Source of the DNA: a virus
Lineage: Duplodnaviria; Heunggongvirae; Uroviricota; Caudoviricetes
Strand: one strand, 5' to 3'
DNA length: 64,000 nucleotides
Virus record (IMG/VR): IMGVR_UViG_3300006217_002764
The notes beneath the pieces were generated by a model. That model was not told the origin of the DNA. It was given only the letters and a program-made list of their open reading frames with translations, and did no database searches. The translations under genes and the position numbers were made by a program. Of the stretch, positions 17,113 to 48,790 are shown in pieces; within the stretch, counting starts at the first letter, position 1; every line of letters starts with the position of its first letter.

Positions 17113-17237
17113 GATGCTCCTTTCCACGGCCGGAACCGTCGGTTTGCAGACAGGTTCAGTATACCACGGGACTGAACATGCCCACAAAAACACCATATAT
17201 GCTAAATTGAACATATCCACAAAACCAAGGGCCCTAT

Positions 17238-20971: not shown

Positions 20972-21235
20972 CCTATCCAAACCGTTGCAAAACCAAGGTT
21001 CTGCAACATTAGGGAACCCGAAAAACTTCAGCTTGCCCCACACGCGTGGACATGACCACCTTGCGGCGGTCAGCTTCAAGTCTCACACCACCAGTTCGAC
21101 GGCTGCTTGATAGGCGTTTCATCGAACCTGTCCAGCAAACCCGAAGGTGGCTGGCACTGGGTTCTCCACGCCCGTTGTCCGTATCCGCCACACTCTCGAA
21201 AAGTGTGGTTCGTGTCCTGCACAAGCCTCTTATGC

Positions 21236-22492: not shown

Positions 22493-23521
22493 TCACGCTC
22501 GCATTTTATCGTCGATGCTGATTGGGTCGAGTATGTGCACGACGCTTCCGGTGTTCAGGCTTTTGTAGGTCAGTTGGCGGGTGAATTCGGCGAATGCCGC
22601 GTCCGTGAGGCTTTGCGCGAGCATGTGGTGTCGCATGCCGCGTTTGATGTTGACTTTCTGTATGTTGATGACGGCGTATTGGTCCACAAGCCGGCGGGTC
22701 AATTCGTGCAGCATCGTGTCACGCAACGCTTTGATGCGCTTGTGGATGCGGTTGACCTTGCGGCGTTGCTCCTCGTAGCGGACGCTTCCACGGGCTTTGC
22801 GTGACAGGTCACGGGACGCCTTGCGCAACCCCTCCAACGCCTGCCGGTATGGTCGCGGCAGATCGATCCGGGTACCGTCCGACAGGATGATGTGTTCCAA
22901 GGTGAACACGCACCAGATGTCGGGTTTTGTGTTCACGGGTGGCGCCGGTTCGGGGGTTTCGCACAATAGGCTCGCGTACCATGTGTCGTGTTCGCAACGG
23001 ATGGTGGTGGTTTTCACCTTGCGGCCGGCCACGAGCCGGTGGATGTTGCGCAAGGTGTGCACGCGTCCGATGCGGGGCAGTCTGATGCCATGGTCGTCGG
23101 GGATGGTGATGGCGCTGAATGCGAACGATTTGACCGCGCTACGGGGTTTGAACTTGGGGAAGCCGACGGGGGATCCTTTGCGTTTGCCTGACAGGCTTTT
23201 GAGGAAATTGCTGGATGCTTTGCCGAGGTTGTCGAACGCGCAGTTATAAACCTGTGAGGCGACCTCATCCCACCATGGGGCCAACCGGTCGCGGTTGGCG
23301 CGCCACCAGTAGCCGAGTTTGATGACATTGTTGTCGATTTTGATGAGGTCTTTCTTGCCGACGCCTGATTCGACCTGCGCCTTGCGCTCCTCCAACTGTT
23401 CCTTCATATGTTGCAACGCGGCGTTGTACGCGAAACGTGCCGCGCCCGCGTACATGCGGAACATGCGCTCTTGTACGGGGGTGGGGTCGAGCGGGACTTT
23501 CACCGCCTCATACGTGGTCAT
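22493..23521 (-). pseudogene. tnpB: TnpB-like gene truncated before the zinc finger
   Basis: N-terminal TnpB signature VKVPLDPTPVQERMFRMYAGAARFAYNAAL and RuvC-II region INIQKVNIKRGM...LTDAAFAEF. The ORF stops right after ILDP, where the YTSQ..C..CG zinc finger should follow. Confidence 0.55.
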
Positions 23522-24479: not shown

Positions 24480-25075
24480 GATGCCTCCTTACTGGCGTGG
24501 TCGTACAAATACAATGCGTCCCGTTTGACCTCCACCCGTTCCAGCATGTCGCCCAATTGGCGGGTGTCGAACCCGTGCGAGCAGACCAGGTGGTAGCCGT
24601 TGATAGTGGCGATGACGGTGACCGCGCCCGGCGCCTCACTCTCCTCGTAGATGCGTTCGATGCGCCGGCGCAACGCTTCGGCACGGATCCAGCTTGGATC
24701 GTCCACGTCGAGCAGCCAGTGGCGTTCGGCGCGTTGTTCGGGTTGCATGGCGACGCTCAGGGCCATCTGATCGAGGGTGGCCATGTCCATGTCCGTCGTG
24801 TCGATGAGCACATGCATGAGCGCGGTGCGAGTCTTCGCGTTGTCGCGTGCGTTGACAGACACGTAGAAGCGGCTCACCTCGCCCGGTTTGCCTTGGTTCA
24901 CGAACCGGGTGAACCGGTCGCGCAGTTCGAAGGGTCTCTTGCGGGTCAGGAACGACTCGCACCGTTCTACGAACCCGTCCACCTGTTGGTTGTCCTTGCG
25001 GCGGGAACGGAACAGGACACCATGCAACGGACGGCTGTCGGCGGTGATGCGTTTGGGATGGTAATGGTTGCTCAT
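24476..25075 (-). CDS. hypothetical protein
   Basis: 199-aa ORF. ATGA overlap with the kinase-ligase gene. Confidence 0.45.
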   Translation of the reverse strand: MSNHYHPKRITADSRPLHGVLFRSRRKDNQQVDGFVERCESFLTRKRPFELRDRFTRFVNQGKPGEVSRFYVSVNARDNAKTRTALMHVLIDTTDMDMATLDQMALSVAMQPEQRAERHWLLDVDDPSWIRAEALRRRIERIYEESEAPGAVTVIATINGYHLVCSHGFDTRQLGDMLERVEVKRDALYLYDHASKEAS

Positions 25076-26805
25076 GATGCGGTCTCCTTGTCATGGTGGG
25101 CCAGCCAGTCGGTGACTTGGGTCATGTCCACCGCATCCCGGTCGAATGCGCTTTGATGGTAGACGAGTTGTTCGCGTGGGATCGCAGCCAACACGGCCCG
25201 CACCAACCGCGAGCGTTCCGAATCGTCCTGCGGGACGGGCTTGCCGCGCAGCAGGATGTTCTCCAGTACGGGGCGCAAACGTTTCGACTGGAGGTACAGG
25301 TCGGATTTGACTTTCACCATGTACCCGTCCGCACCGTAGATGACCACGCCCTCGCGTGATGATAGGGCCGCATCATGCAAGGCTTGGCGCAGTCCGGTCT
25401 CGTCCTGAATCATGTACCAGTCTGGACGGTACGGAAACAACGTGTTCAACAGGCTGTCCGCCTGCATGTCGATGGCGAATTCCACATGGTTGTGGATTGC
25501 ATGCAGGTAATACAGGCGTGACTTGTCGTAGTGGATGATGTGCTGGTCGGATTCCGCGTCCACGATCTCACAGGCCACGGTGACATCATGCGCACGCATG
25601 GTCTGCCATATCTCATGCCGCGTGTATGGGTCGGGCAGGTCACGGAGGAACGCTTTCTCAATCAGCGGCGAATAGTCGGTCTGGCCGCTCTTCGAATAGA
25701 AACGGAACACGCCCTCCTGTTCGGTTGCGCCGATCAATCCGAGGAAACCGTTCTCCTTCATCTCCACGCGCGCCGGGTACGTCATATGTTCCAGCACGTT
25801 GTCAAGACTGGTCTGCTTGTTCTCCCCGAGGTTGAAGAACTTGTCGAACCCACGCATCACCACGTCACCGGCGCTGTTGAGGAACAGGCCGCGGGCCTTC
25901 GACGAGTATTCGTCCCATGCGTGGTTGCGGAACGCGTCCCGGGTGAAATTGCACGCCCATAGATCTTCCTCGCCACGTACCGGCATGACGCGCACATTCG
26001 GGTTGTCGCGCATCTGGTCCAACAGGGTCGGTTCCGGTTCGGGGCAGGGCAGGTCGTCCGTGTTGCTCATCCGCCAGTCCAACCACTGTTGCGATGCACC
26101 GTGGCACAGCCAAGTGCAGTACACGTCGGACGGCATGAGTGGATTGTTCACCGCGGGCACACACAGCATGTCAGCGGTGTGGTTGCGGCCGTGCTGGGAG
26201 GGGAGAAACGCTTTGACCATGCGGAACGTGTCCACGCTCAACGGTTTGCATGCCATCCGGTACGCGCCCATCGCGTCGACCAACGCGAATGTGTGGCTGT
26301 GTTCGCTGGGACGCCACATGTGGCGTCCGGCGGGTTCGACGGGCACATGCACCCACTGCATGGGTGTGGAGATACTGTCCGTATACCGTTCGTACTGGGC
26401 CCGCAAATACTCCTCGGGCACCTGGTCGTCCTCGGCGCGATGGCGGTTGCGTTCCAGCAACGTGTCCAACGGTACGGGGAATGCCACGGTTTGCACGTCC
26501 GCGTTGCAGTCGGCGGCCAACCCTACCAGTTCATGCACGCGTTCCATGTTGGCGTTCTGTGCGTCCATGATCACGTTCAGGCCTTTGCGCAACGCGTCGC
26601 AGACCATGGCGTGCGCCGTACGCACAATCAGTTTCTCTGTTGTCGCAGTGCGATGCGCATGGTAGGCGGCCAGACTTCCCGCCGTCATACGTCGCAACCC
26701 ATCCAAGGACACGATGATCGTATCTGGATGGTTCGTCACGCACTTGCGCGCCCATGTGCTTTTGCCGCTCGCGGGCAGCCCGCGCAGGATGACCAACGTC
26801 GCCAT
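25072..26805 (-). CDS. polynucleotide kinase (P-loop) fused to RNA ligase (nucleotidyltransferase)
   Basis: N-terminal Walker A VILRGLPASGKSTWARK (T4 Pnk/AAA_33-like kinase). C-terminal ligase motif I KENG (RVEMKENGFLGLIG). Confidence 0.6.
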   Translation of the reverse strand: MATLVILRGLPASGKSTWARKCVTNHPDTIIVSLDGLRRMTAGSLAAYHAHRTATTEKLIVRTAHAMVCDALRKGLNVIMDAQNANMERVHELVGLAADCNADVQTVAFPVPLDTLLERNRHRAEDDQVPEEYLRAQYERYTDSISTPMQWVHVPVEPAGRHMWRPSEHSHTFALVDAMGAYRMACKPLSVDTFRMVKAFLPSQHGRNHTADMLCVPAVNNPLMPSDVYCTWLCHGASQQWLDWRMSNTDDLPCPEPEPTLLDQMRDNPNVRVMPVRGEEDLWACNFTRDAFRNHAWDEYSSKARGLFLNSAGDVVMRGFDKFFNLGENKQTSLDNVLEHMTYPARVEMKENGFLGLIGATEQEGVFRFYSKSGQTDYSPLIEKAFLRDLPDPYTRHEIWQTMRAHDVTVACEIVDAESDQHIIHYDKSRLYYLHAIHNHVEFAIDMQADSLLNTLFPYRPDWYMIQDETGLRQALHDAALSSREGVVIYGADGYMVKVKSDLYLQSKRLRPVLENILLRGKPVPQDDSERSRLVRAVLAAIPREQLVYHQSAFDRDAVDMTQVTDWLAHHDKETAS

Positions 26806-26832: not shown

Positions 26833-27570
26833 TCAGCGGTGCCGTTTCAGCGTGGGATGCGGCTCCGGCGGGAAGGAGATCAACCGTTCCGCGTCGACGA
26901 AATGCCACAGCACCTGTTCCTCGCTCACCGGCCGCATGTTCCATGCGTCCACACCGATGTTGAGCTCACGCGGGTTGGCGAACTCGAACGGGTCCGTGGA
27001 GTGTGTATGCCCGTGCAGCAGCCAGCTGAAGCCGTTGTCCACGAACGCATACTGGGCGTATTGCGGGTCGCATGCGTTCGTGCTCAACCCGCTGGGCGTG
27101 GGCTGTTCGAAATGGTGGCGGAATTGGAAGTGCGACAAGAGCACGTTGAGTTTGCCGATGGTGGTCGCACCCCCGGTATCGACGGTGACGAACACGTCCA
27201 ACAGTTGCCGCATCTGCGAGTATCCGCAGCGCAGGTCCTCATGGTTACCGAGGATCAGGTGCCGCCTGCCGCGTGGCACGCGCAGCCCTTCGAGGGTTTG
27301 CAACGCGCCGGTCAGGCTTGCCCGTCCGCCGGTGCTCAAGTCCCCCAGCACGTAGAGTTCGTCTTCCTCCCCGACCCGTTCGTTGATGTTGTCGATGATG
27401 GTGTGGTCGTGGCGCTGCCAGTCCACCATGTCAGCGAGTTTCCAACGGTTCGTGCGCGCGTATTCGCGTAGGTCGGCGGCGGCCAGATGCGCGTATTCAG
27501 GTTTTGCGTATCCACGCAACGCGGCCACGAACGGGTGGTGCAAATGCAAATCGGAAGTGAAATACTTCAT
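26833..27570 (-). CDS. calcineurin-like metallophosphoesterase
   Basis: Motifs SDLHLHH, YVLGDLS, GNHE and GHTH. Start MKYFTSDLH at 27570. Confidence 0.7.
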   Translation of the reverse strand: MKYFTSDLHLHHPFVAALRGYAKPEYAHLAAADLREYARTNRWKLADMVDWQRHDHTIIDNINERVGEEDELYVLGDLSTGGRASLTGALQTLEGLRVPRGRRHLILGNHEDLRCGYSQMRQLLDVFVTVDTGGATTIGKLNVLLSHFQFRHHFEQPTPSGLSTNACDPQYAQYAFVDNGFSWLLHGHTHSTDPFEFANPRELNIGVDAWNMRPVSEEQVLWHFVDAERLISFPPEPHPTLKRHR

Positions 27571-27583
27571 GGCTTGTTCTCCC

Positions 27584-28030
27584 TTAGTCTTTGCTGATGG
27601 ACTCGTCGATGGGGGCCCAACCAGTGTTCTCGTCGTACAGGTCGCGCACGGACCATGCATCATTGACGAACAGGTACACGTATTCGGCCCACATGCCACG
27701 TGCGGCCTCCACGAATGCGTCACGGTCCACATATACGGCGGCCTGCATGGCATCATTCTTGCCGTAGGTGCTGGCGGCCGCTGTTTTCGAAGGCGGATAG
27801 CCGTTCTTGTCGATGTCGCGGCGTTTCTCCGCATCGTCCATGAATGCGGCAGGCGTCTGCCCGAGCACGTCGATCTCACCCAACGCCATGAGCTCCTCCA
27901 CTTGCACCCCATCTGTGTAATGGTCGCGCAACACTTTCCCGTTGTATGACGGGTACCCGTCGCACTGGCAGTAGATGGCCGTGATGGAACCGTCCCCATG
28001 CTGCATGCCGATCAAGCTACGAGTAGTCAT
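27584..28030 (-). CDS. hypothetical protein
   Basis: ORF immediately upstream of the phosphoesterase. Confidence 0.4.
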   Translation of the reverse strand: MTTRSLIGMQHGDGSITAIYCQCDGYPSYNGKVLRDHYTDGVQVEELMALGEIDVLGQTPAAFMDDAEKRRDIDKNGYPPSKTAAASTYGKNDAMQAAVYVDRDAFVEAARGMWAEYVYLFVNDAWSVRDLYDENTGWAPIDESISKD

Positions 28031-28954: not shown

Positions 28955-29030
28955 TCCTGTGGTTTTGTGGATAATCTCAGTATAGCACATATATCGCATG
29001 TTCTCCCCCGGCGTGTTCTCCTATACTGGA
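28955..29030. promoter_or_regulatory. divergent conserved promoter motifs
   Basis: ttgtggataatctcagtatagcacatat (minus promoter) and cctatactggaaccatccacaaaa (plus promoter for the hydrolase). Confidence 0.5.
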
Positions 29031-29072
29031 ACCATCCACAAAACCACCCCGAACCCATACAAGGAACGCCCC

Positions 29073-30362
29073 ATGTCCTCCAAAACCGGCAGCATGATCG
29101 CAGCAGGCGCCGCAGCAGCGATCGCACCAATCCTCATAATGACCACCATGACCACCAGCATGCTCTCCGGCATGGGCACCATCATCGCCACCGAAGCAGG
29201 GAACGCCGCAATCAACGCCAGTGCCGCCGATTGCGAAGAGACCACGGAAACCACCGTTGCGACGATAAGTATCGGCAAGCTGGAAGGCGACAGCACTGCC
29301 GCCCGTCTCGCGAACGCGTTCTCCAAGGCCGGGTTCTCCAAGGAAGCAACTGCGGGAATGATGGGCAATGTGCAATGGGAGTCGGGGTTCCGCGCCGATT
29401 CCATCAATGAGATCGGCGCCACGGGAATCATGCAATGGTATCCAGGCAGCAAGATCACCGACTGGTTCAACACGCAGGACGACCTCAAGGGCCGGCCGGC
29501 CACTGACGAGGAAGGCCAGATCCGCATGGCGGTGTGGGTCGGACAGGACACCAGCTCGTGGAACAATGTGTTTCTATCCAAGGCCAAGGCCGAGGGGATG
29601 CGCGCCATCGGCGACGATCTCTACCGGTCGTGGCGGGAGGCGTCCAGTCCGGAGGATGCGGCCCTCGCTTGGCATTGGGGGTTCGAACGTGCCGACGATT
29701 CGACCGGGCCACGACGGCAGACCGCCGCACGCGGTTTCTACGACAAGGGGCTGGAAGGGCTTTCATTCACTGGGAAACCCAACAGTGACAACACCGCCGA
29801 GACAACCTCAACGCGGTGCAGCACAACCAACGGAGGATCCAGTGGGAACGTCAAAGCAGGATCCGCGGGCGGTGCGCCGGATGATACCGACAATTATGCG
29901 TGGATGTGTTCCGCGATCGGCGTATGCAAGGACGGCGACGGGTTCGAAGGCAGCCCGAAAGTCAAGTATCCGCACAACGTGTCAAGGTACCAGTGCGTGT
30001 GGTATGCGTGGAACCGTCTCGGTATGATCCACGGCAACGACGGATGGGATACGGTCATGGGCAACGGTGGCGTCATCGCCTCCAATCTGCAAGGAAAACC
30101 CGGATGGACCGTGGACGGCTCTCCCCACCCCGGGGACGGAGTGAGCCAATTGGGTGGCGCATTGGGCGGGGACACGTCGGTCGGGCACGTCGCCGTCGTC
30201 GAGGATGTGAAGACGGAAGGCGGCAAATGGAAGATACGCATCAGCGAGGGCAACTGCGACGGTACCGGTGCTGGCAACTGGACCGGATACCGGACCCGTT
30301 GGCTCACACAGGACCAGTTCGCGGGCGCCCAGGTGTTCTTCCGCAACGGCGCATGGAAATAG
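29073..30362 (+). CDS. secreted/membrane cell-wall hydrolase (lysozyme-like domain plus CHAP amidase/peptidase domain)
   Basis: N-terminal hydrophobic segment and a muramidase-like region (MGNVQWESGF...IMQW). C-terminal CHAP-type Cys...His signature (QCVWYAWNRLG ... GHVAVVEDV). Confidence 0.65.
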   Translation: MSSKTGSMIAAGAAAAIAPILIMTTMTTSMLSGMGTIIATEAGNAAINASAADCEETTETTVATISIGKLEGDSTAARLANAFSKAGFSKEATAGMMGNVQWESGFRADSINEIGATGIMQWYPGSKITDWFNTQDDLKGRPATDEEGQIRMAVWVGQDTSSWNNVFLSKAKAEGMRAIGDDLYRSWREASSPEDAALAWHWGFERADDSTGPRRQTAARGFYDKGLEGLSFTGKPNSDNTAETTSTRCSTTNGGSSGNVKAGSAGGAPDDTDNYAWMCSAIGVCKDGDGFEGSPKVKYPHNVSRYQCVWYAWNRLGMIHGNDGWDTVMGNGGVIASNLQGKPGWTVDGSPHPGDGVSQLGGALGGDTSVGHVAVVEDVKTEGGKWKIRISEGNCDGTGAGNWTGYRTRWLTQDQFAGAQVFFRNGAWK

Positions 30363-30368
30363 GCGCCG

Positions 30369-31307
30369 CTAACTGGCGCATGACGCGATGCAGATGCCCA
30401 TTTTCCCAGCGTCCCACAGCGTCCAATCCACGTTGTCCATCTCGCCCATGTTCTCCACGCCGCGCAACCACCGTCCGGCCGGCAGATGAGCGAGGCCCAT
30501 GCGCGGCCGTCCTTTGACAGGGATGACTTGGCGGTGTCCGTCGCCGAGGTTGGCAGGCATGTCCTCGTCCCATTCGTTCAGATAGGGGTTGATCCACCAA
30601 TAATCAGACTTGTGGTGCTGGATCGATGTCACACGTCCGTCAGCATCGAAGGTCAGGGTGTCTTTGACCGGGTAGGTGCGCCATGCGGGGGTGATCGCAT
30701 ACCAGTCGCCGTAATGGTAGCTGTCCCCATCCTGCAACAGGATGGCGCGCACATCGCCGGTGACCTCCACTGTTCCGTCGTCAAGCACACGTGCTTGTGG
30801 CTCGCCGCTCCAACGGCTTCCGTAGGACCATGCTTCATGCGCCCACCATTGGCCCATGGAGGGTGATTGAGTGCAAGCGCCGTTCATATCCAAAGTGCAG
30901 GGGACGCTGGACGTGTCGGGGCCCCATGTGTCCTTGATGTCGAGTGAGGTGAGGCTTTTCAACGGGTTGCCGCTGATTGGGGTAGCGTGCAGTTGGTTGA
31001 GTGCTTCATCTACGTTCTTGTACGCGTATGTGGCTGCTGGCTGGTTGGCGTCCGCACCCCAATCGCGCATGGCATGTTCGACCTGCACCGCCATATTGGC
31101 ACGGGCCTGTCGTTCCTCCTCGGTCAATGAGGGTTGCTGGGGTGTGCTTTTCGCCTGCGATGGCGCCACGGTTGACACAGAGGGTGACGCAGACGAGGAC
31201 GGGTTCTCTCGGGTGGCGGTGCTCAGGATCACCCCCACAATGATGGCCGTCAAGGCGATGATCGCGATGACGGCCGAGGTTTTCTTTCCGTTACCCATAC
31301 ACGTCAT
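30369..31307 (-). CDS. membrane-anchored hypothetical protein
   Basis: N-terminal TM helix AVIAIIALTAIIVGVIL followed by a Ser/Pro-rich linker. Confidence 0.5.
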   Translation of the reverse strand: MTCMGNGKKTSAVIAIIALTAIIVGVILSTATRENPSSSASPSVSTVAPSQAKSTPQQPSLTEEERQARANMAVQVEHAMRDWGADANQPAATYAYKNVDEALNQLHATPISGNPLKSLTSLDIKDTWGPDTSSVPCTLDMNGACTQSPSMGQWWAHEAWSYGSRWSGEPQARVLDDGTVEVTGDVRAILLQDGDSYHYGDWYAITPAWRTYPVKDTLTFDADGRVTSIQHHKSDYWWINPYLNEWDEDMPANLGDGHRQVIPVKGRPRMGLAHLPAGRWLRGVENMGEMDNVDWTLWDAGKMGICIASCAS

Positions 31308-31717
31308 CCCTTGGCGGGGCGAACAATGTGTTTGATGGCGCTCGATGGGATGTAGACGTCTGAACCGTTGACGGCGCGGACATGGGTGAGCTTGGAGGCT
31401 TCGAAGTCAACCGGTTCATCGACGGTGACCGATGCGCCATCGTCAAGGATGACGCGCGTCATACCCTGTGTCTGCTCAACCGGGATGATGCTTACTGTAT
31501 CGAGAACAGCTTGTGTGGGGACAACGCGCAGTCCGGGGGTGAACATGTCATGGCCAAAGAAGGGTGGGCGTAGGCAATCAGGTTCCTCATTCCAGCGGAT
31601 GTCCCCGGCTTCGTTGATGCCCGTGACGTTGATGACGGTCTCTATGTAGCCTTTGAGGGGATTGACCCAAGCAACCAGATAGGCGCCGGTGTGGTCGATG
31701 GTTTTGCTGTCGATCAT
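31304..31717 (-). CDS. hypothetical protein
   Basis: 137 aa. Promoter motif at 31738-31768 immediately upstream. Confidence 0.5.
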   Translation of the reverse strand: MIDSKTIDHTGAYLVAWVNPLKGYIETVINVTGINEAGDIRWNEEPDCLRPPFFGHDMFTPGLRVVPTQAVLDTVSIIPVEQTQGMTRVILDDGASVTVDEPVDFEASKLTHVRAVNGSDVYIPSSAIKHIVRPAKG

Positions 31718-31830
31718 ATGTGTGACCCTTTCCGTGGTTTGTGGACAAGTTCAGTGTAGCATATTATGGATGTAATGCCGGTATAGGCCAGTACAATAAA
31801 CAACCAACGCAACCCGATGGGAGGGCGGAC

Positions 31831-32802
31831 GTGACTACAAAGAAAACCGATGGGAAACACAGCGGCAAACCACCGATCCCGATGACCATGCGGCAACTCG
31901 AACTCGCCGCCGACATCGACACGCATACCCCCACACCGCAACAGGTCGGCTACGGTCATTCGATTCTCACCGCGACCCTTTACCCCGCCGTCCCCCCGGC
32001 GCCCGGCACTGACTTCGTCTCCAAACGCAACGGCAGTTTCGAATACATGCTCGAGGCGGGCGTGGATGAAGAGACCCATGAACGAGATTTCCCATATGGC
32101 AAATACCCGAGGCTCATCATGGCGTGGATGGCGAAACAGATACGTTCCGCTCATGGCCATAGGACGGACACGGTGGACCCCGAGACGAGGACCATCACCA
32201 TCCCCACCATCAACCGCCTATGTGACGAGATGGGTGTGGGACATGGCGGCAAGACCGCAGAAGCGGTGCAGGAGCAGTTGAGGCGATTGCTTGCGGCGCG
32301 CATCAGCGTCCGCCGTCGTGGGGGCTTCTCCGAGCGGAAGGGCAACAAGGTCAGCCAGATCCTCTACCTGCCGTTCGCCCGCGCCATCGAGTATACGGAC
32401 GATGAGCGGGGGCGTGCCTATTCGGGTGCGAGGTTCATATTGACGGAGGACGCGTATGAACGGCTTAAATTGGAGAGTGCCCCGTTTGACACGAGGGTCA
32501 GCGAGTATCTGTTGGCAGGACGTTCTGTGATGCCGTATGACCTGTATCTGTGGCTCAACGGGTCGATGGCGGGGTTGACCCATCCGGTCACGGTGTCATG
32601 GGAATGGCTGTATGAGCAGTTCGGTGATGGGATTGCGAGTATGAGCCGGTTCAAGGCGACGTTCAAGCGTGCGTTGGCGAAGGTGCTGGAGGTGTATCCG
32701 GCTGCGAATGTGTCGGTTCCCCCGCGGGGCGAGGGTGTGGTGCTCAAGCCGTCGTTGACAAGTGTGGAGATGCGTGATCCGAAACATGGTTTGTCGCGAT
32801 AG
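31831..32802 (+). CDS. putative replication initiator (Rep-like DNA-binding protein)
   Basis: GTG start after RBS GGGAGGG. The gene ends inside the first iteron copy and is followed by a tandem iteron array and an AT-rich stretch. No catalytic motif. Confidence 0.45.
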   Translation: MTTKKTDGKHSGKPPIPMTMRQLELAADIDTHTPTPQQVGYGHSILTATLYPAVPPAPGTDFVSKRNGSFEYMLEAGVDEETHERDFPYGKYPRLIMAWMAKQIRSAHGHRTDTVDPETRTITIPTINRLCDEMGVGHGGKTAEAVQEQLRRLLAARISVRRRGGFSERKGNKVSQILYLPFARAIEYTDDERGRAYSGARFILTEDAYERLKLESAPFDTRVSEYLLAGRSVMPYDLYLWLNGSMAGLTHPVTVSWEWLYEQFGDGIASMSRFKATFKRALAKVLEVYPAANVSVPPRGEGVVLKPSLTSVEMRDPKHGLSR

Positions 32803-33020
32803 TCCCCACGTTGAGCAGAGATTCTTGTTGCAATACCGTCCAGCTTGCTTTCTGGGGCCAGTGAACTGGGTTATTTAGTGGAGCAGCTGCTTGATGGACA
32901 CAAGATACGGGAGCACAAGGGGACTATCGCGATAAAAACAAACACGGAAAGACCGTCACGCACAGCTCCATAGCAATATTTCATGCCCTGCCGCAAGATT
33001 GAGGGGACTATCGCGACAGG
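32797..33020. repeat. iteron copies (one direct, two inverted) flanking the rep gene 3' end
   Basis: TTTGTCGCGATAGTCCCCAC at 32797, with inverted copies GGGGACTATCGCGA at about 32911 and 33003. Confidence 0.6.
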
Positions 33021-33028
33021 ACGCCCAT

Positions 33029-33541
33029 TCAGGACGCGGCAACACCGTAGTCATCGATATCCTCGACATCAGCCTCGCTGCGCCCTTCGGAAGCATTCGA
33101 CTCCCCGATCTCAGGACGACTGCCGTCAGAACCCTCAAAAACGCCCTCCTGAGCCCCTTTCCCGGCAAATACGGTAAACAACACCAAGAGCAGAAGAAAA
33201 ACGATTCCAGAAGCGATTACAGCAAGAACAAGCCCTGAAGACCACGACGACGAGAACAACCAATCAACAAACGAACCATCCACCACCTCCGAAGCCGATT
33301 CAGGATCATCCTCAAGCAACGAAGAGCGAACCGACGACACATCTGCCAAATGAGACAACCACCCCACCATCGGAGCCCCCACCGTGGCCCCAACGCTTCC
33401 AATCCAACACAGAAGCCTATAACGGGCAACCCAACGTGAACACACTGAGAACATACGACGCATGGAAACCACCTCGATACCGTTGCCGTCAAGACGTAGG
33501 ATTCGAAACCAGGAAACGAACCACCACAGCATCCACGCCAT
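33029..33541 (-). CDS. hypothetical membrane protein
   Basis: ORF with a strong TM helix GIVFLLLLVLFTVFAG. The call is uncertain because the region is repeat-rich. Confidence 0.35.
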   Translation of the reverse strand: MAWMLWWFVSWFRILRLDGNGIEVVSMRRMFSVCSRWVARYRLLCWIGSVGATVGAPMVGWLSHLADVSSVRSSLLEDDPESASEVVDGSFVDWLFSSSWSSGLVLAVIASGIVFLLLLVLFTVFAGKGAQEGVFEGSDGSRPEIGESNASEGRSEADVEDIDDYGVAAS

Positions 33542-33659
33542 CCCCGCTCACGCCGAAGGCGGATCAAGCGAACAGGGGTTCGAGGGGCGCTTCCGATAGG
33601 TTTGACATGAACGATATCGGGTGCGCGCTGAGCATGGTCTACGGCACTCGGTTTTTCGA

Positions 33660-33720
33660 ATTTCTCGCCAACTATTATATATATTACTATATTACACTAT
33701 TAGGGGGTGCCCTGAGGTCA
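33660..33720. other. AT-rich stretch (candidate DNA-unwinding element of oriV)
   Basis: tttcgaatttctcgccaactattatatatattactatattacactatta in an otherwise 60% GC background, directly before the iterons. Confidence 0.45.
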
Positions 33721-33736
33721 ATCGGCAGTAGGGCTG

Positions 33737-33897
33737 AGGTGGAATCGTTTGTCGCGATAGTCCCCATGTTTTGTCGCGATAGTCCCCATTTTCATTCGCG
33801 ATAGTCCCCATTTTCATTCGCGATAGTCCCCACGGTTTTGGCCCCTAACCCCCTGTTTGTCGCGATGGTCCCCATAGTTTTGTCGCGATAGTCCCCA
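33737..33897 (+). repeat. iteron array, 6 direct copies of TTTGTCGCGATAGTCCCCAT at 22-24 bp spacing
   Basis: Copies at about 33740, 33762, 33786, 33809, 33852 and 33876, with minor variants (TTCATTCGCGATAGTCCCCA, GCGATGGTCCCCA). Confidence 0.7.
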
Positions 33898-34096
33898 TAA
33901 TTCAAAAGTTATCCACATTGGTGCAAAGAATGATGCAGCAGTAAGCGTAAGCCTGTGGATAAAGGACGCATGTCCGCGGCGGCAGCGATCTTCCTCAAAA
34001 CTCGGGGCGTGCTGCAAAACACTATATGCTATACTGAACGTATCCACAAAACCCATGGCCTCCACAGGCCCATACCGAAAAGGAACCCATGCAACC

Positions 34097-34438
34097 ATGG
34101 ACACCGCATCCGACCTCATCCGACAATTGCACATCACCATCGCACCGGAAAACAACCTAACCACAATGGGTCTGCTCCACCACGCCCAACTCCGGCGCCA
34201 ACGCGAACACATCACCTGCCCCGAGCACAACGTGGACAACCACACGCGAGAACGCTGGGCTGTCGATTACATCCGCCACAAACTCACCAACTACGACGAA
34301 ATCGTAGCCAGATCCGACAGCCAACGAACCGCCAGCCGGATCAAGAACGCCGTGCTTGAACTCATCGCACGCACCTACCCCACCTACCGGAACGCATGCC
34401 AGATGCAACGCGTCCCCATCCCTGGCGTCGCCGCCTAA
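34097..34438 (+). CDS. hypothetical protein
   Basis: Start MDTASD chosen downstream of the promoter motif at 34023-34052. Confidence 0.4.
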   Translation: MDTASDLIRQLHITIAPENNLTTMGLLHHAQLRRQREHITCPEHNVDNHTRERWAVDYIRHKLTNYDEIVARSDSQRTASRIKNAVLELIARTYPTYRNACQMQRVPIPGVAA

Positions 34439-34465
34439 ACACCATCCATAAAAGCAAGGACACAT

Positions 34466-34936
34466 ATGCCACACTTGGGAACACTCGATTACTCCACCAT
34501 CTCCGTCTCTGCATACGGGCGGGCCACGCCGCGCAAACAAGACACCAACAGGCTGCGCGGCGCACTCTTCCACACTTCATACGAACCCCAATACGACACA
34601 GATGGGAAACAGCTCCCCCTCTACGCTTGCGTCAACCGACTCCTCATGTTCTTCGGACACGAACCTATCGACATCGACAGGATCGAACGCGAATACTACA
34701 AGGTATGCAACATGATGCACATTGACCTACCGGAAGACCCTGTACCCTATCAGAAATGCGAAGATTGCGCGTACACACAGGTCGCGGCTATCACCTTCGC
34801 CAACCGGATCATTCACGCCATGCCCGACGACAAGATCACTCCACGGCGCGAGCACAGCATGGCCATCAACTTCATCGACATGGACAAGCCGTACACGGAG
34901 CGTGCAGCCCGCCGACACCTCAAGGAAGCCAATTGA
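34466..34936 (+). CDS. hypothetical Cys-containing protein
   Basis: 156-aa ORF. Confidence 0.45.
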   Translation: MPHLGTLDYSTISVSAYGRATPRKQDTNRLRGALFHTSYEPQYDTDGKQLPLYACVNRLLMFFGHEPIDIDRIEREYYKVCNMMHIDLPEDPVPYQKCEDCAYTQVAAITFANRIIHAMPDDKITPRREHSMAINFIDMDKPYTERAARRHLKEAN

Positions 34937-37869: not shown

Positions 37870-38853
37870 ATGGATCGACTTGACGACGAGAACATCGCGC
37901 TGCTCACGCTGCTCTACTCCTGCAAACGACCCGACAGTTGGAAGAGCCTGACTAACCAGTGTCTGGTCGAGGGAAGCGCGCGGCGGGTGTTGATGAACCG
38001 GCTGGACGCGCAAAGCAACCCGTTGCGCGAATTCGACGAGGTAGAACCCGAAGATTTCGCCTTGTTCCCCGAACCGTTGAGCGACGCGCGCCAGCGAGAA
38101 TACGACGCCGCGGCTAGGGAAGCAGAGCGAGACTACGACGAGTGGATGCGCGCCGAGTTGAGGTTCGTCAGCATCTTCGATTCCGACTATCCGCATCTGC
38201 TGCTTGATAGCGTGGACGCCCCGCCGTTCATGTTCTCCAAAGGCCTGCTTCTGTCTGACGATCGTGGTGTCAGTGTCGTAGGGTCGCGCCATGCCAGTCC
38301 GCAAGGTCTGGAGTTCGCGCAGGAAGTCGCAGCGATGCTCGCGAAGCGGAGTTTGACCGTTGTCGCAGGATTGGCCGAAGGTGTGGATACCGCGGCGCAT
38401 CAGGCTGCATTGGATGCCGGTGCGAGGACCGTCGCGTTCATCGGCACCGGCATCAACCGCGCCTACCCCGCATCCAACCGTGCTTTGCAGGAACGCATAG
38501 CGCATGAAGGATTGGTGTTGTCCCAGTTCAAGCCGGACGCGCCACCGACTCGCCAGACGTTCCCTATGCGCAACGCGGTCATGTCATCCTACGGGTTGGC
38601 GTCCGTCATCTGCGACGCCGGGGAACATTCCGGCACGCGCATCCAAGCAAGGCAGGCCATGCAGCACGGCCGGCCGATCATCTTCCGTCAGCAGGTCGTT
38701 GAGCAGACGCGATGGGCGCATAGCTATCTGGACAAGCCCAACGTGTACGTTGCTCGCACCGTAAACGATGTGGCGCGGTTCATTGACGCCATCTTCCACA
38801 CGGCGCTTGTGCAGGTGGACGACGACTATCTGCGTATACCGTTGGGAGTGTGA
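37870..38853 (+). CDS. dprA: DprA/Smf-like DNA-processing protein (Rossmann/SLOG fold)
   Basis: VVGSRHASPQG...VVAGLAEGVDTAAHQAALDAG...FIGTGINRAYP...FPMRNAVMS...VICDAGEHSGTRIQARQAMQHGRPI matches the DprA core. TATAAT at about 37832. Confidence 0.7.
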   Translation: MDRLDDENIALLTLLYSCKRPDSWKSLTNQCLVEGSARRVLMNRLDAQSNPLREFDEVEPEDFALFPEPLSDARQREYDAAAREAERDYDEWMRAELRFVSIFDSDYPHLLLDSVDAPPFMFSKGLLLSDDRGVSVVGSRHASPQGLEFAQEVAAMLAKRSLTVVAGLAEGVDTAAHQAALDAGARTVAFIGTGINRAYPASNRALQERIAHEGLVLSQFKPDAPPTRQTFPMRNAVMSSYGLASVICDAGEHSGTRIQARQAMQHGRPIIFRQQVVEQTRWAHSYLDKPNVYVARTVNDVARFIDAIFHTALVQVDDDYLRIPLGV

Positions 38854-39710: not shown

Positions 39711-39768
39711 TAATCTGATTGGGCTATAGTTGTGGTTGTCAACGAAAACACACCACAAGGAGACCATC
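39711..39768 (+). promoter_or_regulatory. conserved promoter/5'UTR palindrome motif (type 2)
   Basis: ctgattgggcTATAGTtgtggttgtcaacgAAAACACaccaCAAGGAGaccatcATG. Confidence 0.5.
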
Positions 39769-40563
39769 ATGGACACCAAGCAAAGCGCCACCCTGTTGTG
39801 CGCCGCTATCGACAAGGACGGCGAACCATACACCACACAGATTGTCGCCTTCATCTCCCCCGGCCTGCCGTACTTCTCGATCATCGGCATGCCCGACACC
39901 TTTTTGGGAGGCGTACGCGAACGCATCCACACCGCCATGGGTGCACAAGGGTTCACATGGCCCGCCACGCGCGTCACGGCCAACATCATGCCCGCCAGCA
40001 GGCACAAGGACGGGCGCGCGCACGAACTCGCCGTCGCCGCCAGCATCCTGTGCGCCAACGGTGTCCTGGACAAAGCGCTGTTCGACCATGCGGCCCTGAT
40101 CGGCCGCCTCGACGACGATGGAGACTGGCATAGCGGCGGGCGCATCCAGCGCGTCGAACACCTGCCCGAACTCGTACGCCATCTCGCTACGCAGGATGTG
40201 CGCACCATCATCATTCCCGCAGCAAACACGGATGTCGAACCCATCGACGGCGTACGGTTCATCCGCGTATCCACGTTGGCGGACCTGACCACCATCAATG
40301 AAGGCACCCGGCCAGTGTGCGACCGTATCGACCGGTTGGTGAATGAGGCGCGCGGCGTCATGGACACCCGGCAGGAAGAACTATTGGACGCGCGCATCCG
40401 GGAACTCGAAGACGCAGTGGACACGCTCAACAGCGTCATCGAACAAGAAGAACGCGACCCCAACGCACGGGAATCGGCCGACATCGCCGAAGCCGAACAA
40501 ACCATCGACGAACTACAGGACCAGCTCGACACACTGAACGACAAGGAAAGGGAAGAATATTGA
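39769..40563 (+). CDS. ComM/YifB N-terminal-domain protein lacking the AAA+ ATPase module
   Basis: ISPGLPYFSIIGMPDTFLGGVRERIHTAMGAQGFTWPATRVTANIMPASRHKDGRAHELAVAASIL aligns to the ComM N-terminal (Lon-like) domain. The C-terminal half is an acidic coiled-coil. No Walker motifs. Confidence 0.55.
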   Translation: MDTKQSATLLCAAIDKDGEPYTTQIVAFISPGLPYFSIIGMPDTFLGGVRERIHTAMGAQGFTWPATRVTANIMPASRHKDGRAHELAVAASILCANGVLDKALFDHAALIGRLDDDGDWHSGGRIQRVEHLPELVRHLATQDVRTIIIPAANTDVEPIDGVRFIRVSTLADLTTINEGTRPVCDRIDRLVNEARGVMDTRQEELLDARIRELEDAVDTLNSVIEQEERDPNARESADIAEAEQTIDELQDQLDTLNDKEREEY

Positions 40564-44042: not shown

Positions 44043-44115
44043 GTGGGCTGGCGGGATTCGAACCCGCGACCTCCGGATTAAACGTCCGGTGCTCTGTCCT
44101 CTGAGCTACAGCCCC
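44043..44115 (-). tRNA. tRNA-Lys(TTT)-like with unusual G33 (anticodon loop cgTTTaa)
   Basis: Hand-folded. D-stem gctc/gagc, anticodon stem ccgga/tccgg, T-arm gcggg-TTCGAAT-cccgc. 1:72 is G:A. Confidence 0.45.
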
Positions 44116-44256
44116 GCGCATGCCCACCGTCATGATCGGCCGGATATGCGGGATGCGTTCACCATCGCCTTATGGTGTTGCCGAAGATGGCGTGTCTTCG
44201 ACCGTTCCGATCTTTAATAGGATCGTAGACGAGCCTGCACCAAGGCCCGACCTGCG

Positions 44257-44325
44257 TGGGGCGGCCGGATTCGAACCAGCATCCGCTAGCGCTCTGCCAT
44301 TTGAGCTACGCCCCCGGTGGGATGG
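44257..44325 (-). other. truncated tRNA-like element (acceptor, D-arm and T-arm but no anticodon arm)
   Basis: About 64 nt. gggggcg-ta-gctcaaatggcagagc...gctgg-TTCGAAT-ccggc-cgcccc. Confidence 0.35.
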
Positions 44326-44413
44326 CGATCAACCCATCCCCTCCACCTGCACCGATACCGGTGGGGCCCCGTATTGGCGGGGCCATCGGCTCGGGGATAC
44401 CGGTCCGATCGGA

Positions 44414-44484
44414 ACCGGAATCGCACACCGGGATGGAATCGAACCACCGCCTGCGGTTTTGGAGACCGCCGTCCTACCATTGGA
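44414..44484 (-). tRNA. tRNA-Trp(CCA)
   Basis: Hand-folded. Anticodon loop ctCCAaa on stem gcggt/accgc, D-stem gtcc/ggac, T-loop TTCGATT, acceptor with two G-U pairs. Confidence 0.55.
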
Positions 44485-44659
44485 CCACCGGCATATATGG
44501 TGCGCGTCCCTCATGGGCAACGCACCACCGTCCCATGCGTCCGCCTACCATCACGACCTATAGCCACGCCCCTTGATGGGCACAACAACGCCGCTCGGCA
44601 AGCCGACCACACGGGCCCGCATCCAAAACCGTCAACTGGCGTTCCGGTTGGATGCCTCG

Positions 44660-44732
44660 CAGGCGAGGCAGGATTCGAACCTGCAACCCACGGTTCCAAA
44701 GACCGTCGTGCTGCCAATTGCACCACTCGCCT
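44660..44732 (-). tRNA. tRNA-Gln(TTG)
   Basis: Acceptor aggcgag/ctcgcct perfect, D-stem gtgc/gcac, anticodon loop ctTTGga, T-arm gcagg-TTCGAAT-cctgc. Confidence 0.6.
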
Positions 44733-44947
44733 ATACCATGCGGCCTATGCGGCCGCGATGGTCACGGTTTGCGCGCCCAATCACCCGCTGGGCACCCTCC
44801 GCCGGTGCCGGAGGAGACGGACATTGCCCGCCTGTACGCCACCATGCTCTGCTTGGTCTGCCACGACAAGGTGGATGCCGCGGGAAGCCCGTATCATGGA
44901 CCCCTATGCCTGCCCATTGGACGCCGGGCAGGTGGCGTATCCTTTCG

Positions 44948-45020
44948 TGCTTTCGGCGGGATTCGAACCCGCGGCCTTCCGCTCCGGAGGCGGACGCCCT
45001 ATCCACTGGGCCACGAAAGC
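44948..45020 (-). tRNA. tRNA-Arg(CCG)
   Basis: Acceptor gctttcg/cgaaagc perfect, D-arm gccc-agtggata-gggc, anticodon loop ctCCGga, T-arm gcggg-TTCGAAT-cccgc. Confidence 0.65.
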
Positions 45021-45059
45021 GTAGTGTCCAGCGCCGTGCCAACGGCTGTGCACGTGCCT

Positions 45060-45110
45060 GATACGCACCGTGCGTGGAATCGAACCACGATCGGGATCGC
45101 CACCATAACC
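45060..45110 (-). other. tRNA fragment (isolated T-arm hairpin)
   Basis: cgtgg-TTCGATT-ccacg without matching acceptor or D-arm. Confidence 0.3.
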
Positions 45111-45233
45111 CGGTCGCCGCCCCCGCACCCCATACCGGGAGGGGCCGCACCACCAACCACACCGCTTTCATATCAGTACTCACGGCCAGCCGCGTGCGCA
45201 ACCGGTTCACAGCGCTTTCCAGCTCTGGACTCG

Positions 45234-45307
45234 TGCCCCCGGCAGGATTCGAACCTGCGACCGGACGGGTAGAAACCGTCTGCTCTGATCCACTGAGCTA
45301 CAAAGGC
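45234..45307 (-). tRNA. tRNA-Arg(TCT)
   Basis: D-arm gctc-agtggat-cagagc, anticodon loop ttTCTac on stem gacgg/ccgtc, T-arm gcagg-TTCGAAT-cctgc, acceptor with three G-U pairs. Confidence 0.55.
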
Positions 45308-45538
45308 AATCTCTTTCCCCCCGAGCGTATGAGTACGACCACCCGAGGGGAAAGAGCTGGAATGCCGGATTCGTTTTCACCAGCAGCGCCAAGGTACGGT
45401 GCGTGAGCTCCGTTTTAAGCGTACCGTCCGTTAGGTTACTAGCCTGACTGTGAAGCCCGAACGTGCCTTGCCCTCCATACCGTAGGGCGTTTCAGCCAAT
45501 TCCATGGACACCGAGTGATGGCCGTCACCCGGTGCCTG

Positions 45539-45613
45539 TGCTTCCCACGGGATTCGAACCCGTACTGAACTGGGTTTGAGCCAGTCACCTCTACCGGATT
45601 GGGTTAGAGAAGC
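45539..45613 (-). tRNA. tRNA-like with anticodon CAA (Leu codon UUG) but short variable arm
   Basis: Anticodon stem actgg/ccagt perfect with loop ctCAAac. T-arm acggg-TTCGAAT-cccgt. D-stem has one mismatch. Class-I architecture is atypical for Leu. Confidence 0.4.
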
Positions 45614-45712
45614 GTGACCACCTACCCCGCCTGACACGGAGCCGGCCAGCCGTCAGGAAACCAGCCTTCCATAATCGTGGCATCACAGCCGATGATCGAA
45701 CTGCTTCTTTCG

Positions 45713-45785
45713 TGCTCCCCGTGGGACTCGAACCCACAACCCAAGGCTTAAAAGGCCCCTGCTCTACCAATTGAGCTAGAAAAGC
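45713..45785 (-). tRNA. tRNA-Lys(TTT)
   Basis: D-arm gctc-aattggta-gagc, anticodon loop ctTTTaa, T-arm gtggg-TTCGAGT-cccac, acceptor with G-U pairs. Confidence 0.55.
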
Positions 45786-47599: not shown

Positions 47600-48790
47600 T
47601 TATGAGTCGTGCGGATCGCTAACGATACGTTCGGCTTCGTTTCGTATGTTCAGCGCGGCGTTCACATCCCGATCGTGGAGAGTACCGCACTGCGGGCATG
47701 CCCATTCACGTATGGACAGGTCCTTTACCGCACGATTGCGGTATCCGCACGTATGGCATAGTTGGCTGGACGGGTACCATGCGTCCACTCGGATGAATTG
47801 TTTTCCGGCGTGTTCGAGCTTGTAGCGCAACAGGTCGCAGAACATGCCATACCCGTTGTCGAGCGTGCTTTTCGCCAGCCCGCTTTTCGCTGTGCGCCCG
47901 TTCGGTAGATACCTGTTCGGGTCGTGCGGGTCGGTTTTGGGTTTCGGCCTGCGCGTCATACCTTGCAGATTCAAGCTCTCCACGGCGATGGCGTCACAGC
48001 TCGCGACGAGTTTGTTCGCGGTCTTGTGTTGGAAGTCCCGACGACGATTCGCTGTCTTTTCGAACAGGCGGGCGACTCGTATGCGTTGTTTCCTCCAATT
48101 GGCCGAGCCTTTCACCATATGTGCCAGGCGACGTTGCTCGCGCGCCAAGCGTGGTTCCATGTCACGGTAGTATCCGGGGTATTGGGCGTGTTCGCCTTCG
48201 CTGGACACATACAGGCCGTGGGATGCGTAGTCCAGTCCGATGATGTGCGCGGGCGGTGTCGGGTCAGGCATTTGGTTCTCATGCTCGAACAGCACCGTCA
48301 CGATGTACCTGTCGGATCGGGTGTGTTCCACGGTCGCTGATTTGAGTTTCCAGTCGGCGGGAATGTGTTTGTGTTGACGGACGGTGACCCATCCCAGTTT
48401 CGGTAGTCGTAGCCTCCTTGCGTTGTCGGACAGGCGGATGCTGTTGTTGATCGAGTTGGTGGTGTATGCGGCTTTCGAGTGATGCTTCGACTTGTATTTC
48501 GGGAACCCCGCGTGCTTATGGTCGAAGAAGTTCCGGTATGCCTTTTGCAGGGCGAGTTGCGCGTTGCACAACGCCATGCTGTCCACTTCGCGCAGGAACG
48601 GGTATGCGTCCTTGTACATGGCGGGTGTGGGATTGCATGATTCCCACGTGGTCTGATAGTGCGCGATGCGGGTTTCGAGCATGAGGTTGTACACGAACCG
48701 GGTGCAGCCGATGGTGCGGTCGATCATGGCCGCCTGTTCCCGGGTGGGGTATGCGCGGAACCTGACGGCGGTGTGCTGTGTGATGTTCAT
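47600..48790 (-). CDS. tnpB: TnpB (IS605 OrfB, RuvC-like plus zinc finger)
   Basis: N-terminus AVRFRAYPTREQAAMIDRTIGCTRFVYNLML. RuvC motifs IGLDYA, AVESLNLQGM and DVNAALNI. Zinc finger CHTCGY...CPQCG. Confidence 0.8.
   Translation of the reverse strand: MNITQHTAVRFRAYPTREQAAMIDRTIGCTRFVYNLMLETRIAHYQTTWESCNPTPAMYKDAYPFLREVDSMALCNAQLALQKAYRNFFDHKHAGFPKYKSKHHSKAAYTTNSINNSIRLSDNARRLRLPKLGWVTVRQHKHIPADWKLKSATVEHTRSDRYIVTVLFEHENQMPDPTPPAHIIGLDYASHGLYVSSEGEHAQYPGYYRDMEPRLAREQRRLAHMVKGSANWRKQRIRVARLFEKTANRRRDFQHKTANKLVASCDAIAVESLNLQGMTRRPKPKTDPHDPNRYLPNGRTAKSGLAKSTLDNGYGMFCDLLRYKLEHAGKQFIRVDAWYPSSQLCHTCGYRNRAVKDLSIREWACPQCGTLHDRDVNAALNIRNEAERIVSDPHDS

Follow-up and report, generated by a model that had tools for sequence, protein, structure and literature searches.

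The 64,000-nucleotide stretch analysed here at its full length (hereafter the window; IMG/VR record IMGVR_UViG_3300006217_002764, listed as a virus of the Caudoviricetes) very probably carries, at 31831-33962, the basic replicon of a megaplasmid of Bifidobacteriaceae type that resembles pMP7017 and has a low copy number, with an iteron-controlled, theta-type origin. Judged by its sequence, this module is a new, diverged relative of the experimentally characterised RepB iteron-replicon family of pMP7017, and it is homology to that plasmid that points to a function in replication. The analysis established the anatomy of the sequence, the homology of the initiator protein and of the origin core, the predicted fold and the plasmid context. 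An earlier sequence-only reading, made without database searches, had proposed a Rep-like gene and an iteron oriV layout at this place. Both proposals hold: the gene product scores 33.3 bits against the Pfam RepA_C model (cut-off 26) and has the same frame in public gene calls, and the layout is that of a diverged homologue of the tested pMP7017 RepB replicon. The module comprises the following features.

31831-32802, plus strand: rep gene (323 aa), the pMP7017 RepB orthologue; predicted iteron-binding initiator with two winged-helix domains
32790-32809, plus strand: proximal iteron R1, a direct copy whose internal TAG (32800-32802) is the rep stop codon
32917-32936, minus strand: proximal iteron R2, an inverted copy
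33001-33020, minus strand: proximal iteron R3, an inverted copy with an exact core at 33003-33016
33659-33703, no strand: AT-rich tract with three ACTAT(A)TTA-type repeats, the predicted DNA-unwinding element
33725-33738, plus strand: conserved box GCAGTAGGGCTGAG, itself no iteron, following the unwinding element and preceding the first iteron
33748-33898, plus strand: tandem array of six direct iterons, starting at 33748, 33770, 33792, 33814, 33856 and 33879
33748-33833, plus strand: the four in-phase iterons of the array (starts 33748, 33770, 33792 and 33814), spaced at 22 bp
33834-33855, no strand: spacer that is the source of a 42-bp step and stands in for one iteron unit
33856-33898, plus strand: the two distal iterons (starts 33856 and 33879), spaced at 23 bp
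33909-33917, plus strand: TTATCCACA, matching the DnaA-box consensus, 11 nt past the last iteron
33954-33962, minus strand: second TTATCCACA box, inverted, 36 nt past the first

The system against which this module is read is that of pMP7017 from Bifidobacterium breve, whose repB gene and downstream region sustain autonomous replication in both B. breve and B. longum (Dineen et al. 2021, PMC8313286). The RepB protein of this plasmid is a dimer with no monomer fraction, and electrophoretic mobility shift assays (EMSA) showed that its own gene is followed by seventeen 20-mers (hvrTGGmCTATCrsTGhmdh) to which it binds, and that it does not bind its own promoter; the bases critical for binding are GGnCnAnnR, and sites 3 bp apart display positive cooperativity (PMC8313286). 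Four in-phase iterons, B12-B15, and the AT-rich region that flanks them are essential, repeats B2-B4 affect stability only, and the copy number of the plasmid is ~1 (PMC8313286). The four in-phase copies of pMP7017 are here taken to be B12-B15 from a reading of its sequence, not from the paper's figure, and on that reading the four in-phase iterons of the window are the positional equivalent of the four that adjoin the AT-rich tract of pMP7017.

The evidence begins with the initiator. The rep gene opens with a GTG at 31831, preceded by GGGAGG, and public-assembly gene calls for the 98%-identical protein P0001 give the same 323-aa frame. In tblastn comparisons, repB of pMP7017 (119397-120394 of its record) matches the window Rep at 46-50% identity and 322 bits, whereas RepA of the same plasmid reaches only 26% identity and 75 bits; the window Rep is therefore the orthologue of the functional RepB and not of RepA. 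An AlphaFold2 model built on 27 homologues (predicted local distance difference test score, pLDDT, 81.9; predicted template modelling score, pTM, 0.81) displays tandem winged-helix domains, as expected of the initiators of iteron theta plasmids. When this model was compared with the PDB using Foldseek, ranks 1-18 were all occupied by domains 2-3 of RctB (Vibrio cholerae chromosome 2) or by RepE (plasmid F), with E-values of 5e-8 to 2.5e-2 and target-normalised template modelling scores of 0.36-0.53 (at least 0.46 for ranks 1-17). The best E-values were 5e-8 for RctB domains 2-3 and 4e-5 for RepE, the RepE matches including its complex with single-stranded DNA of the unwinding element. A profile of the Rep family found nothing significant among PDB sequences, so the kinship with RepE and RctB is visible at the level of the fold only. 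Compared with the 97%-identical contig L017, rep shows 32 synonymous and five non-synonymous codon differences, which indicates purifying selection and hence a functional gene. A simple sigma-70 scan produced no convincing rep promoter, the sequence TACAAT at 31792-31797 being a guess only.

The repeats downstream of rep form a family that is found nowhere else in the window. With at most one mismatch, the 14-nt core TCGCGATRGTCCCC matches nine times, against 0.07 matches expected, and all nine copies are confined to the 1.1 kb between 32794 and 33896, none being found in the rest of the 64 kb; the 20-mer TTTGTCGCGATAGTCCCCAT, with up to three mismatches, matches seven times, against 0.00 expected in shuffled sequences. 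The core is exact in eight of the nine copies, and the ninth (33860) is altered only at the non-critical T9. Within the tandem array, three of the six copies carry the exact 20-mer and that at 33856 has one mismatch, while those at 33792 and 33814 combine a divergent 5' flank (TCATTCGCG...) with a perfect 14-nt core. Over 16 nt, the inverted copy R3 shows 100% complementarity with R1 and with array copies. Read on the bottom strand, the iteron ATGGGGACTATCGCGACAAA keeps all five RepB-critical bases (G5, G6, C8, A10 and G13, that is, GGnCnAnnR) as well as positions 5-14 of the pMP7017 consensus.

The array proceeds in start-to-start steps of 22, 22, 22, 42 and 23 bp, and the spacer responsible for the long step contains GGCCCCTAACCCCC, a degenerate relic with 7 of 14 matches to the core. 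The accompanying AT-rich tract is 45 bp long and 78-90% AT; within it, 33673-33702 is 90% AT and constitutes the most AT-rich 30-mer of the window (mean 42%, sd 8.5%), ending 45 nt upstream of the array. Direct, helix-phased repeats of 17-22 bp beside an AT-rich element are what characterises iteron theta plasmids. At this resolution, several details of the sequence-only reading shift. The six direct repeats it had placed at 33737-33897 exist, although they start 11 nt later, at 33748, and end at 33898; their spacing is not a uniform ~23 bp; and the claim of one 20-bp sequence present six times is true of the 14-nt core at up to one mismatch, the exact 20-mer accounting for half of the copies. 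Similarly, an AT-rich stretch described as 33660-33720 is confirmed for about 33659-33703, whereas 33704-33720 is GC-rich. The single direct and two inverted copies near rep, one of them over the stop codon, are confirmed, at the coordinates given above.

Comparison with other replicons shows which of these elements are preserved. Megablast of 31500-34500 against plasmid and phage collections returned no match, so the nucleotide sequence of the replicon is not a known one. Among plasmids, the best protein matches of Rep are pMP7017 and its B. longum relatives (48-50% identity), and a large protein collection contains 86 homologues, mostly from Bifidobacterium at 50-61% identity, several of them on contigs of 60-240 kb. 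The loci compared, designated by L numbers, comprised ten from reference genomes, three from metagenome assemblies and two near-identical contigs. In almost every locus, the commonest 10-mer is a variant of CGATAGTCCA, and repeats of the same family lie downstream of rep in 13 relatives (L001-L008, L010-L012, L019 and L020), nine of which have a structured array. Among the 12 loci with which the scan began, 10 (L001-L008, L011 and the window) have a plus-strand copy whose distance from the rep stop codon ranges from -30 to +29 nt, and L009, L010 and L012 lack it; inverted proximal copies, one to three in number, recur +60 to +230 nt past the rep stop.

The array itself follows a shared plan in which, read in iteron direction, three to five copies spaced at 22 bp are followed by a 41-42 bp step and a pair with 23-bp spacing. 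Such a 22-bp run of three to five beside an AT-rich region is found in L001, L003, L005, L006, L007 and L012, the 41-42 bp step at the same place of the array in L003, L005, L006, L007, L008 and L012, and the terminal pair at 23 bp in L001, L003, L005, L006, L007, L008 and L019. In L010 a 42-bp step stands at the end of the run, and the step measures 64 bp in pMP7017 and 53 bp in L019; the sequence of the step spacer is not conserved among the relatives. From the AT tract to the first iteron, the origin core can be aligned across nine replicons, and its order, oriented by the iterons, is common to the relatives: an ACTATAA-like AT tract, then the conserved box, then the first iteron. The AT tract of the window aligns with the ACTATAA-repeat region that flanks the in-phase iterons in nine relatives, pMP7017 included. 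The box GCAGTAGGGCTGAG is identical in L005 and has one to four mismatches in L006, L007, L008 and L003; a hairpin was sought in its region, where short stems are possible in some relatives and none is consistent, and an Rfam scan of the origin region found no known RNA family.

The sole close relatives found are contigs L017 and L018 (Logan assemblies SRR10479068 and SRR10799526; 95-97% nucleotide identity), in which every iteron core, R1 included, is invariant, the substitutions being located in the spacers. Each of the two contigs terminates within the array, at window position 33803, which indicates that short-read assemblies break at this origin. As a separate observation, locus L021 is without repeats of the CGATAGTCC type and has instead a cluster of the 12-bp ACTTAGGAA in both orientations at 5935-6012, 3.3 kb downstream of rep, so iteron sequence and position are more variable in some branches of the family.

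Set beside pMP7017, the window replicon displays an orthologous Rep of the RepA_C family (46-50% identity), iterons downstream of rep with one at its stop codon, proximal copies of mixed direct and inverted orientation, and four 22-bp iterons adjoining an ACTATAA-type AT tract. It also shares the GGnCnAnnR bases, the lack of Rep sites in the rep promoter, a promoter motif standing back-to-back with rep, nearby tRNA genes and many megaplasmid genes. With respect to the promoter, the region 31651-31860 has no match to GGACTATCG at up to two mismatches, and inverted half-iterons overlapping the rep promoter, which mark the RepE, pi, TrfA and RctB class, are absent, the inverted copies of the window sitting 3' of rep.

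The differences are equally clear. The window Rep is only about half identical (~49%) to the pMP7017 group, whereas known bifidobacterial megaplasmids share ~89% RepB identity. Compared with pMP7017, the iteron has G for T at position 4 and GA for TG at positions 15-16; there are nine copies instead of 17-18; the step is 42 bp instead of 64 bp; the core is inverted relative to rep; hptX, a small ORF of pMP7017, is missing; two perfect TTATCCACA boxes stand beside the array; and the 64 kb, part of a larger element, revealed no RepA paralogue. The 3' end of the core is TCCCC in the window and its near-identical relatives, and TCCAC or GCCAC in all other family members examined, so that the window iteron reads ...GTCCCC where its relatives read ...G[TG]CCAC.

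Further known systems close to this one are L003-L012, replicons of primate, bat and bird Bifidobacteriaceae (hosts B. rousetti, B. santillanense, B. reuteri, B. callitrichidarum, B. aerophilum and Galliscardovia ingluviei), with which the window shares a Rep 50-56% identical, the 22/42/23 array grammar and the box GCAGTAGGGCTGAG. Their cores, however, end in TCCAC and not TCCCC, most of their arrays lie on the strand opposite rep, and several have an inverted TTATCCACA upstream of the AT tract, which the window is without. More distantly, the predicted two-winged-helix fold recalls the F RepE, R6K pi, RK2 TrfA, pPS10 RepA and RctB systems, and repeats of 20-22 bp at two helical turns, an adjacent AT-rich element and DnaA-box-like flanks recall classical iteron plasmids and chromids. 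As differences from these systems, the window Rep lacks sequence-level similarity to any initiator of solved structure, its iterons lie 3' of rep, and the window has no inverted half-iteron operator in the rep promoter; pMP7017 RepB, moreover, differs from RepE and pi in being dimeric without a monomer fraction (PMC8313286).

The TTATCCACA boxes require separate treatment. Five perfect copies occur in the window, against 0.36 expected, and L005, L006 and L007 have the first box at the same offset (~11 nt) beyond their last iteron. The position of the second (33954) is not conserved, L005-L007 having an inverted box upstream of the AT tract instead, and in L002 a single near-match to the DnaA box is located inside an iteron. 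The other three perfect copies of the window all lie within a 34-bp promoter motif discussed below.

Several observations weigh against an active origin in this arrangement. The second RepA_C-type gene of pMP7017, accompanied by eight repeats, yields a product that binds DNA and gives no support to replication (PMC8313286); a Rep gene with repeats is therefore insufficient proof of an origin. Cumulative G-C of the window has a small local maximum at 33 kb, whereas that of pMP7017 has its global minimum at 118 kb, at its iterons; being a maximum and not a minimum, the skew does not mark 33 kb as an origin, and the GC-skew check that the sequence-only reading had suggested brings no corroboration, with the reservation that only 64 kb of an element of unknown size are visible and that the amplitudes are small. 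The origin core is also inverted relative to rep when compared with most relatives: in the window, core and rep share a strand and the AT tract is proximal, and in nine relatives, pMP7017 included, the core occupies the opposite strand, with the AT tract distal. This window orientation occurs also in B. aerophilum (L008) and in Galliscardovia (L010), and, its internal order being equal in either orientation, the core behaves as a unit. Finally, the TTATCCACA boxes may not be DnaA sites, an identity made doubtful by the occurrence of the same 9-mer in a plasmid-wide promoter motif, and the origins of pMP7017 and of B. longum plasmids are without such boxes: a scan with at most one mismatch found no DnaA-type box beside the array of pMP7017 or of a B. 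longum plasmid, and published work describes no DnaA consensus for the B. longum megaplasmids, and for pMP7017 only DnaA-box-like sequences of the TTTTACACC type (PMC8313286).

A rival explanation is that of a secondary or silent replicon, in which Rep-bound repeats would serve incompatibility, copy control or inheritance while initiation takes place outside the window. The DNA-binding, non-replicating RepA_C gene of pMP7017, the restriction of B2-B4 to stability and the missing origin-type skew minimum at 33 kb all agree with it. Even so, this explanation is improbable: the window Rep is orthologous to the functional RepB and not to RepA by a margin of 322 to 75 bits; the part that is essential in pMP7017, namely the four in-phase iterons with the AT tract, is precisely what the window and its relatives conserve; and no second RepA_C homologue was found in the 64-kb window, itself a part of the element.

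The genomic context supports a plasmid. By tblastn, about 25 open reading frames (ORFs) of the window have pMP7017 homologues at 25-52% identity, arranged in syntenic blocks, and together they represent the conjugative-megaplasmid backbone expected around a pMP7017 RepB-type replicon. They include the ParA/CobQ-like gene and its neighbours, an RNA ligase, a VirB4-like ATPase and its neighbour, and a lysozyme-CHAP gene and its neighbour, together with RepB, a large hypothetical protein and a PD-(D/E)XK nuclease. Pfam scans of 49 window ORFs detected no capsid, terminase, portal, tail or tyrosine-integrase domain. The shared ORFs and the lack of phage domains identify the window as part of a pMP7017-like megaplasmid and not a prophage. 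The sequence-only reading was thus right to see a replicon rather than a mere prophage, while nothing was found to support the integrative form that it had also allowed.

A prophage, phage-plasmid or integrated conjugative element, with the module acting as the origin of its lytic or excised state or persisting as a decaying remnant, is very unlikely. A protein with Phage_lysozyme2 and CHAP domains (28998-30362), the tRNA cluster and the RNA-repair genes are indeed typical of large phages too. Against this, pMP7017 has syntenic counterparts of the lysozyme-CHAP gene and its neighbours beside a VirB4-like ATPase, the 49 scanned ORFs include none of the phage or integrase domains named above, one weak match was all that a tblastn search with Rep returned from 50,697 phage records, selection on rep is purifying, and its iterons remain intact. 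Least probable of all is that the repeats are a parS-like centromere bound by a ParB-type adaptor acting with a ParA-like ATPase: the window does encode a ParA/CobQ-like ATPase (2491-3666, minus strand), and loss of some pMP7017 repeats did lower segregational stability, but that gene lies ~29 kb from the repeats, so that the cluster adjoins no parA-parB operon; a search next to it found no centromere-like repeats or other repeat family; the repeats accompany rep in all 13 relatives; the homologous pMP7017 repeats are bound by RepB in EMSA, with the critical bases kept in the window; and a 22-bp in-phase array beside an AT tract has the geometry of an origin.

For the preferred reading, an iteron-controlled replicon, a working sequence of events can be proposed, in which Rep binding, melting, DnaA use and copy control are drawn from pMP7017 and from general knowledge of iteron plasmids. 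A RepB-type initiator would be made from 31831-32802, and its two winged-helix domains would recognise the 20-bp iteron, with the bottom-strand core GGGGACTATCGCGA. Binding would be cooperative on the four iterons spaced at 22 bp, which is two helical turns and places them on one face of the DNA, and would extend to the two distal iterons past the 42-bp step. The bound Rep would then distort the DNA and open the adjacent 45-bp AT tract. Host DnaA may occupy the TTATCCACA box 11 nt past the array, after which a host or plasmid helicase would enter the opened region; a DnaA-type box at the end of the array aids helicase loading in RK2, F, pSC101 and P1. The reader of the origin-side TTATCCACA could be DnaA or whatever protein reads the promoter motif. 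The three proximal copies would remain outside the opening machinery and most likely titrate Rep or pair Rep-bound sites, thereby contributing to copy control and stable inheritance, a role suggested by analogy with the non-essential B2-B4 of pMP7017. Iteron origins depend on the geometry between iterons and unwinding element, as in RK2 oriV, and the fixed order of the core in both orientations fits this dependence.

Around and within the module lie three further features.

31738-31764, minus strand: megaplasmid promoter motif (ATATGCTACACTGAACTTGTCCACAAA on the minus strand), pointing away from rep and driving 31717..31304
33029-33463, minus strand: putative 144-aa ORF that includes a hydrophobic segment, located in the interval from the proximal iterons to the origin core
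34024-34050, plus strand: second copy of the promoter motif, pointing away from the origin and driving ORF 34055/34098..34438

In pMP7017, a 34-bp motif (AWAYATGYTATACTGAATATGTCCACATAAAAWA) overlaps the -10 element of many promoters (PMC10832533). Its 19-nt core, TAYACTGANNNTRTCCACA, is present in the window at 5128, 15524, 28966, 31740, 34030, 56126, 61938, 62912 and 62978, and a looser 27-nt pattern also matches at 17197-17223 and 59095-59121, giving at least nine copies, against 0.01 expected. pMP7017 contains ten exact matches to the core pattern, and a copy of the motif there (120545-120563 of its record) stands back-to-back with repB, as in the window. The presumed regulon is thus conserved in a megaplasmid whose proteins are only ~45% identical. 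The copies at 31738-31764 and 34024-34050 form a 27-nt inverted repeat that brackets the rep-ori module. This repeat was considered as a rep operator, as the rep promoter and as the ends of an invertible segment, and was rejected in each capacity, since it consists of two outward-facing copies of the promoter motif; the copy at 31738 was likewise discarded as the rep promoter because it drives the divergent gene. The TRTCCACA part of the motif is DnaA-box-like.

A more speculative proposal, to which only slight probability is given, treats the origin core, which runs from the AT-rich tract through the box GCAGTAGGGCTGAG and the 22/22/22/42/23-bp iteron array to TTATCCACA, as a self-contained cassette. 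Its orientation with respect to rep would have been reversed one or more times in the family, perhaps through recombination involving iterons of opposite orientation, and TTATCCACA and TRTCCACA would belong to one recognition family. If this were true, a single factor, either DnaA or a plasmid regulator, would couple the initiation of replication to the transcription of about a quarter of the plasmid genes. A flip between 33003 (minus strand) and 33883 (plus strand) was examined as the cause of the inverted core and rejected, because it would detach the last iteron and TTATCCACA, an arrangement unlike that of any relative.

The putative ORF 33029-33463 is called as a gene in L018 and has no Pfam match. 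Relative to L017, it shows five synonymous and seven non-synonymous differences, and a 1-nt indel abolishes a longer, 170-aa start. The equivalent place in pMP7017 is occupied by the unrelated hptX, which is dispensable (PMC8313286), and the window ORF is probably dispensable for replication as well.

The wider neighbourhood contains eight tRNA genes at 44043-45785 (minus strand), ~10 kb from the origin, with no transfer-messenger RNA detected; ARAGORN assigns Lys-ttt (two), Trp, Gln, Arg-ccg, Arg-tct and Leu-caa, and Rfam adds 44256-44315. This cluster parallels the tRNA array near repB of pMP7017 (PMC10832533). At 25072-26805 (minus strand), a P-loop kinase (Pfam AAA_33) is fused to a T4 Rnl1-like RNA ligase domain, with a metallophosphoesterase gene next to it (26833-27999, minus strand). 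The gene at 6285-7394 (plus strand) specifies another RNA ligase, which has a PHA02142 OB domain and a homologue in pMP7017. These RNA-repair-type genes may guard tRNAs against anticodon nucleases.

Three TnpB-type genes (Cas12f1-like TNB) lie on the minus strand at 12157-14309, 22493-23521 and 47600-48898, one of them paired with a serine resolvase in an IS607-like arrangement, and Rfam gives a Transposase-2 RNA match at 21049-21120 (minus strand). Genes for DprA (DNA_processg_A) and a ChlI/ComM-like protein occupy 37870-38853 and 39730-40563 (both plus strand), at a distance of a few kb from the origin; the related contig L020 also has a DprA gene, adjoining rep. A flotillin/SPFH-domain protein is encoded at 51621-53087 (plus strand).

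As an expected variation on a characterised system, this replicon is a fairly ordinary find, and its modest interest lies chiefly in vector design and in the breadth over which the origin design is conserved. The altered iteron flank predicts a Rep-iteron specificity different from that of pMP7017, and if this separate specificity is borne out, the module could provide a low-copy bifidobacterial vector compatible with the pMP7017-derived pRD plasmids. The window is placed in the pMP7017 lineage, far outside the near-uniform group from B. breve and B. longum, and the origin design of pMP7017, with iterons 3' of rep, an iteron at the stop codon and a 22/42/23 array, is common to a much wider set of Bifidobacteriaceae.

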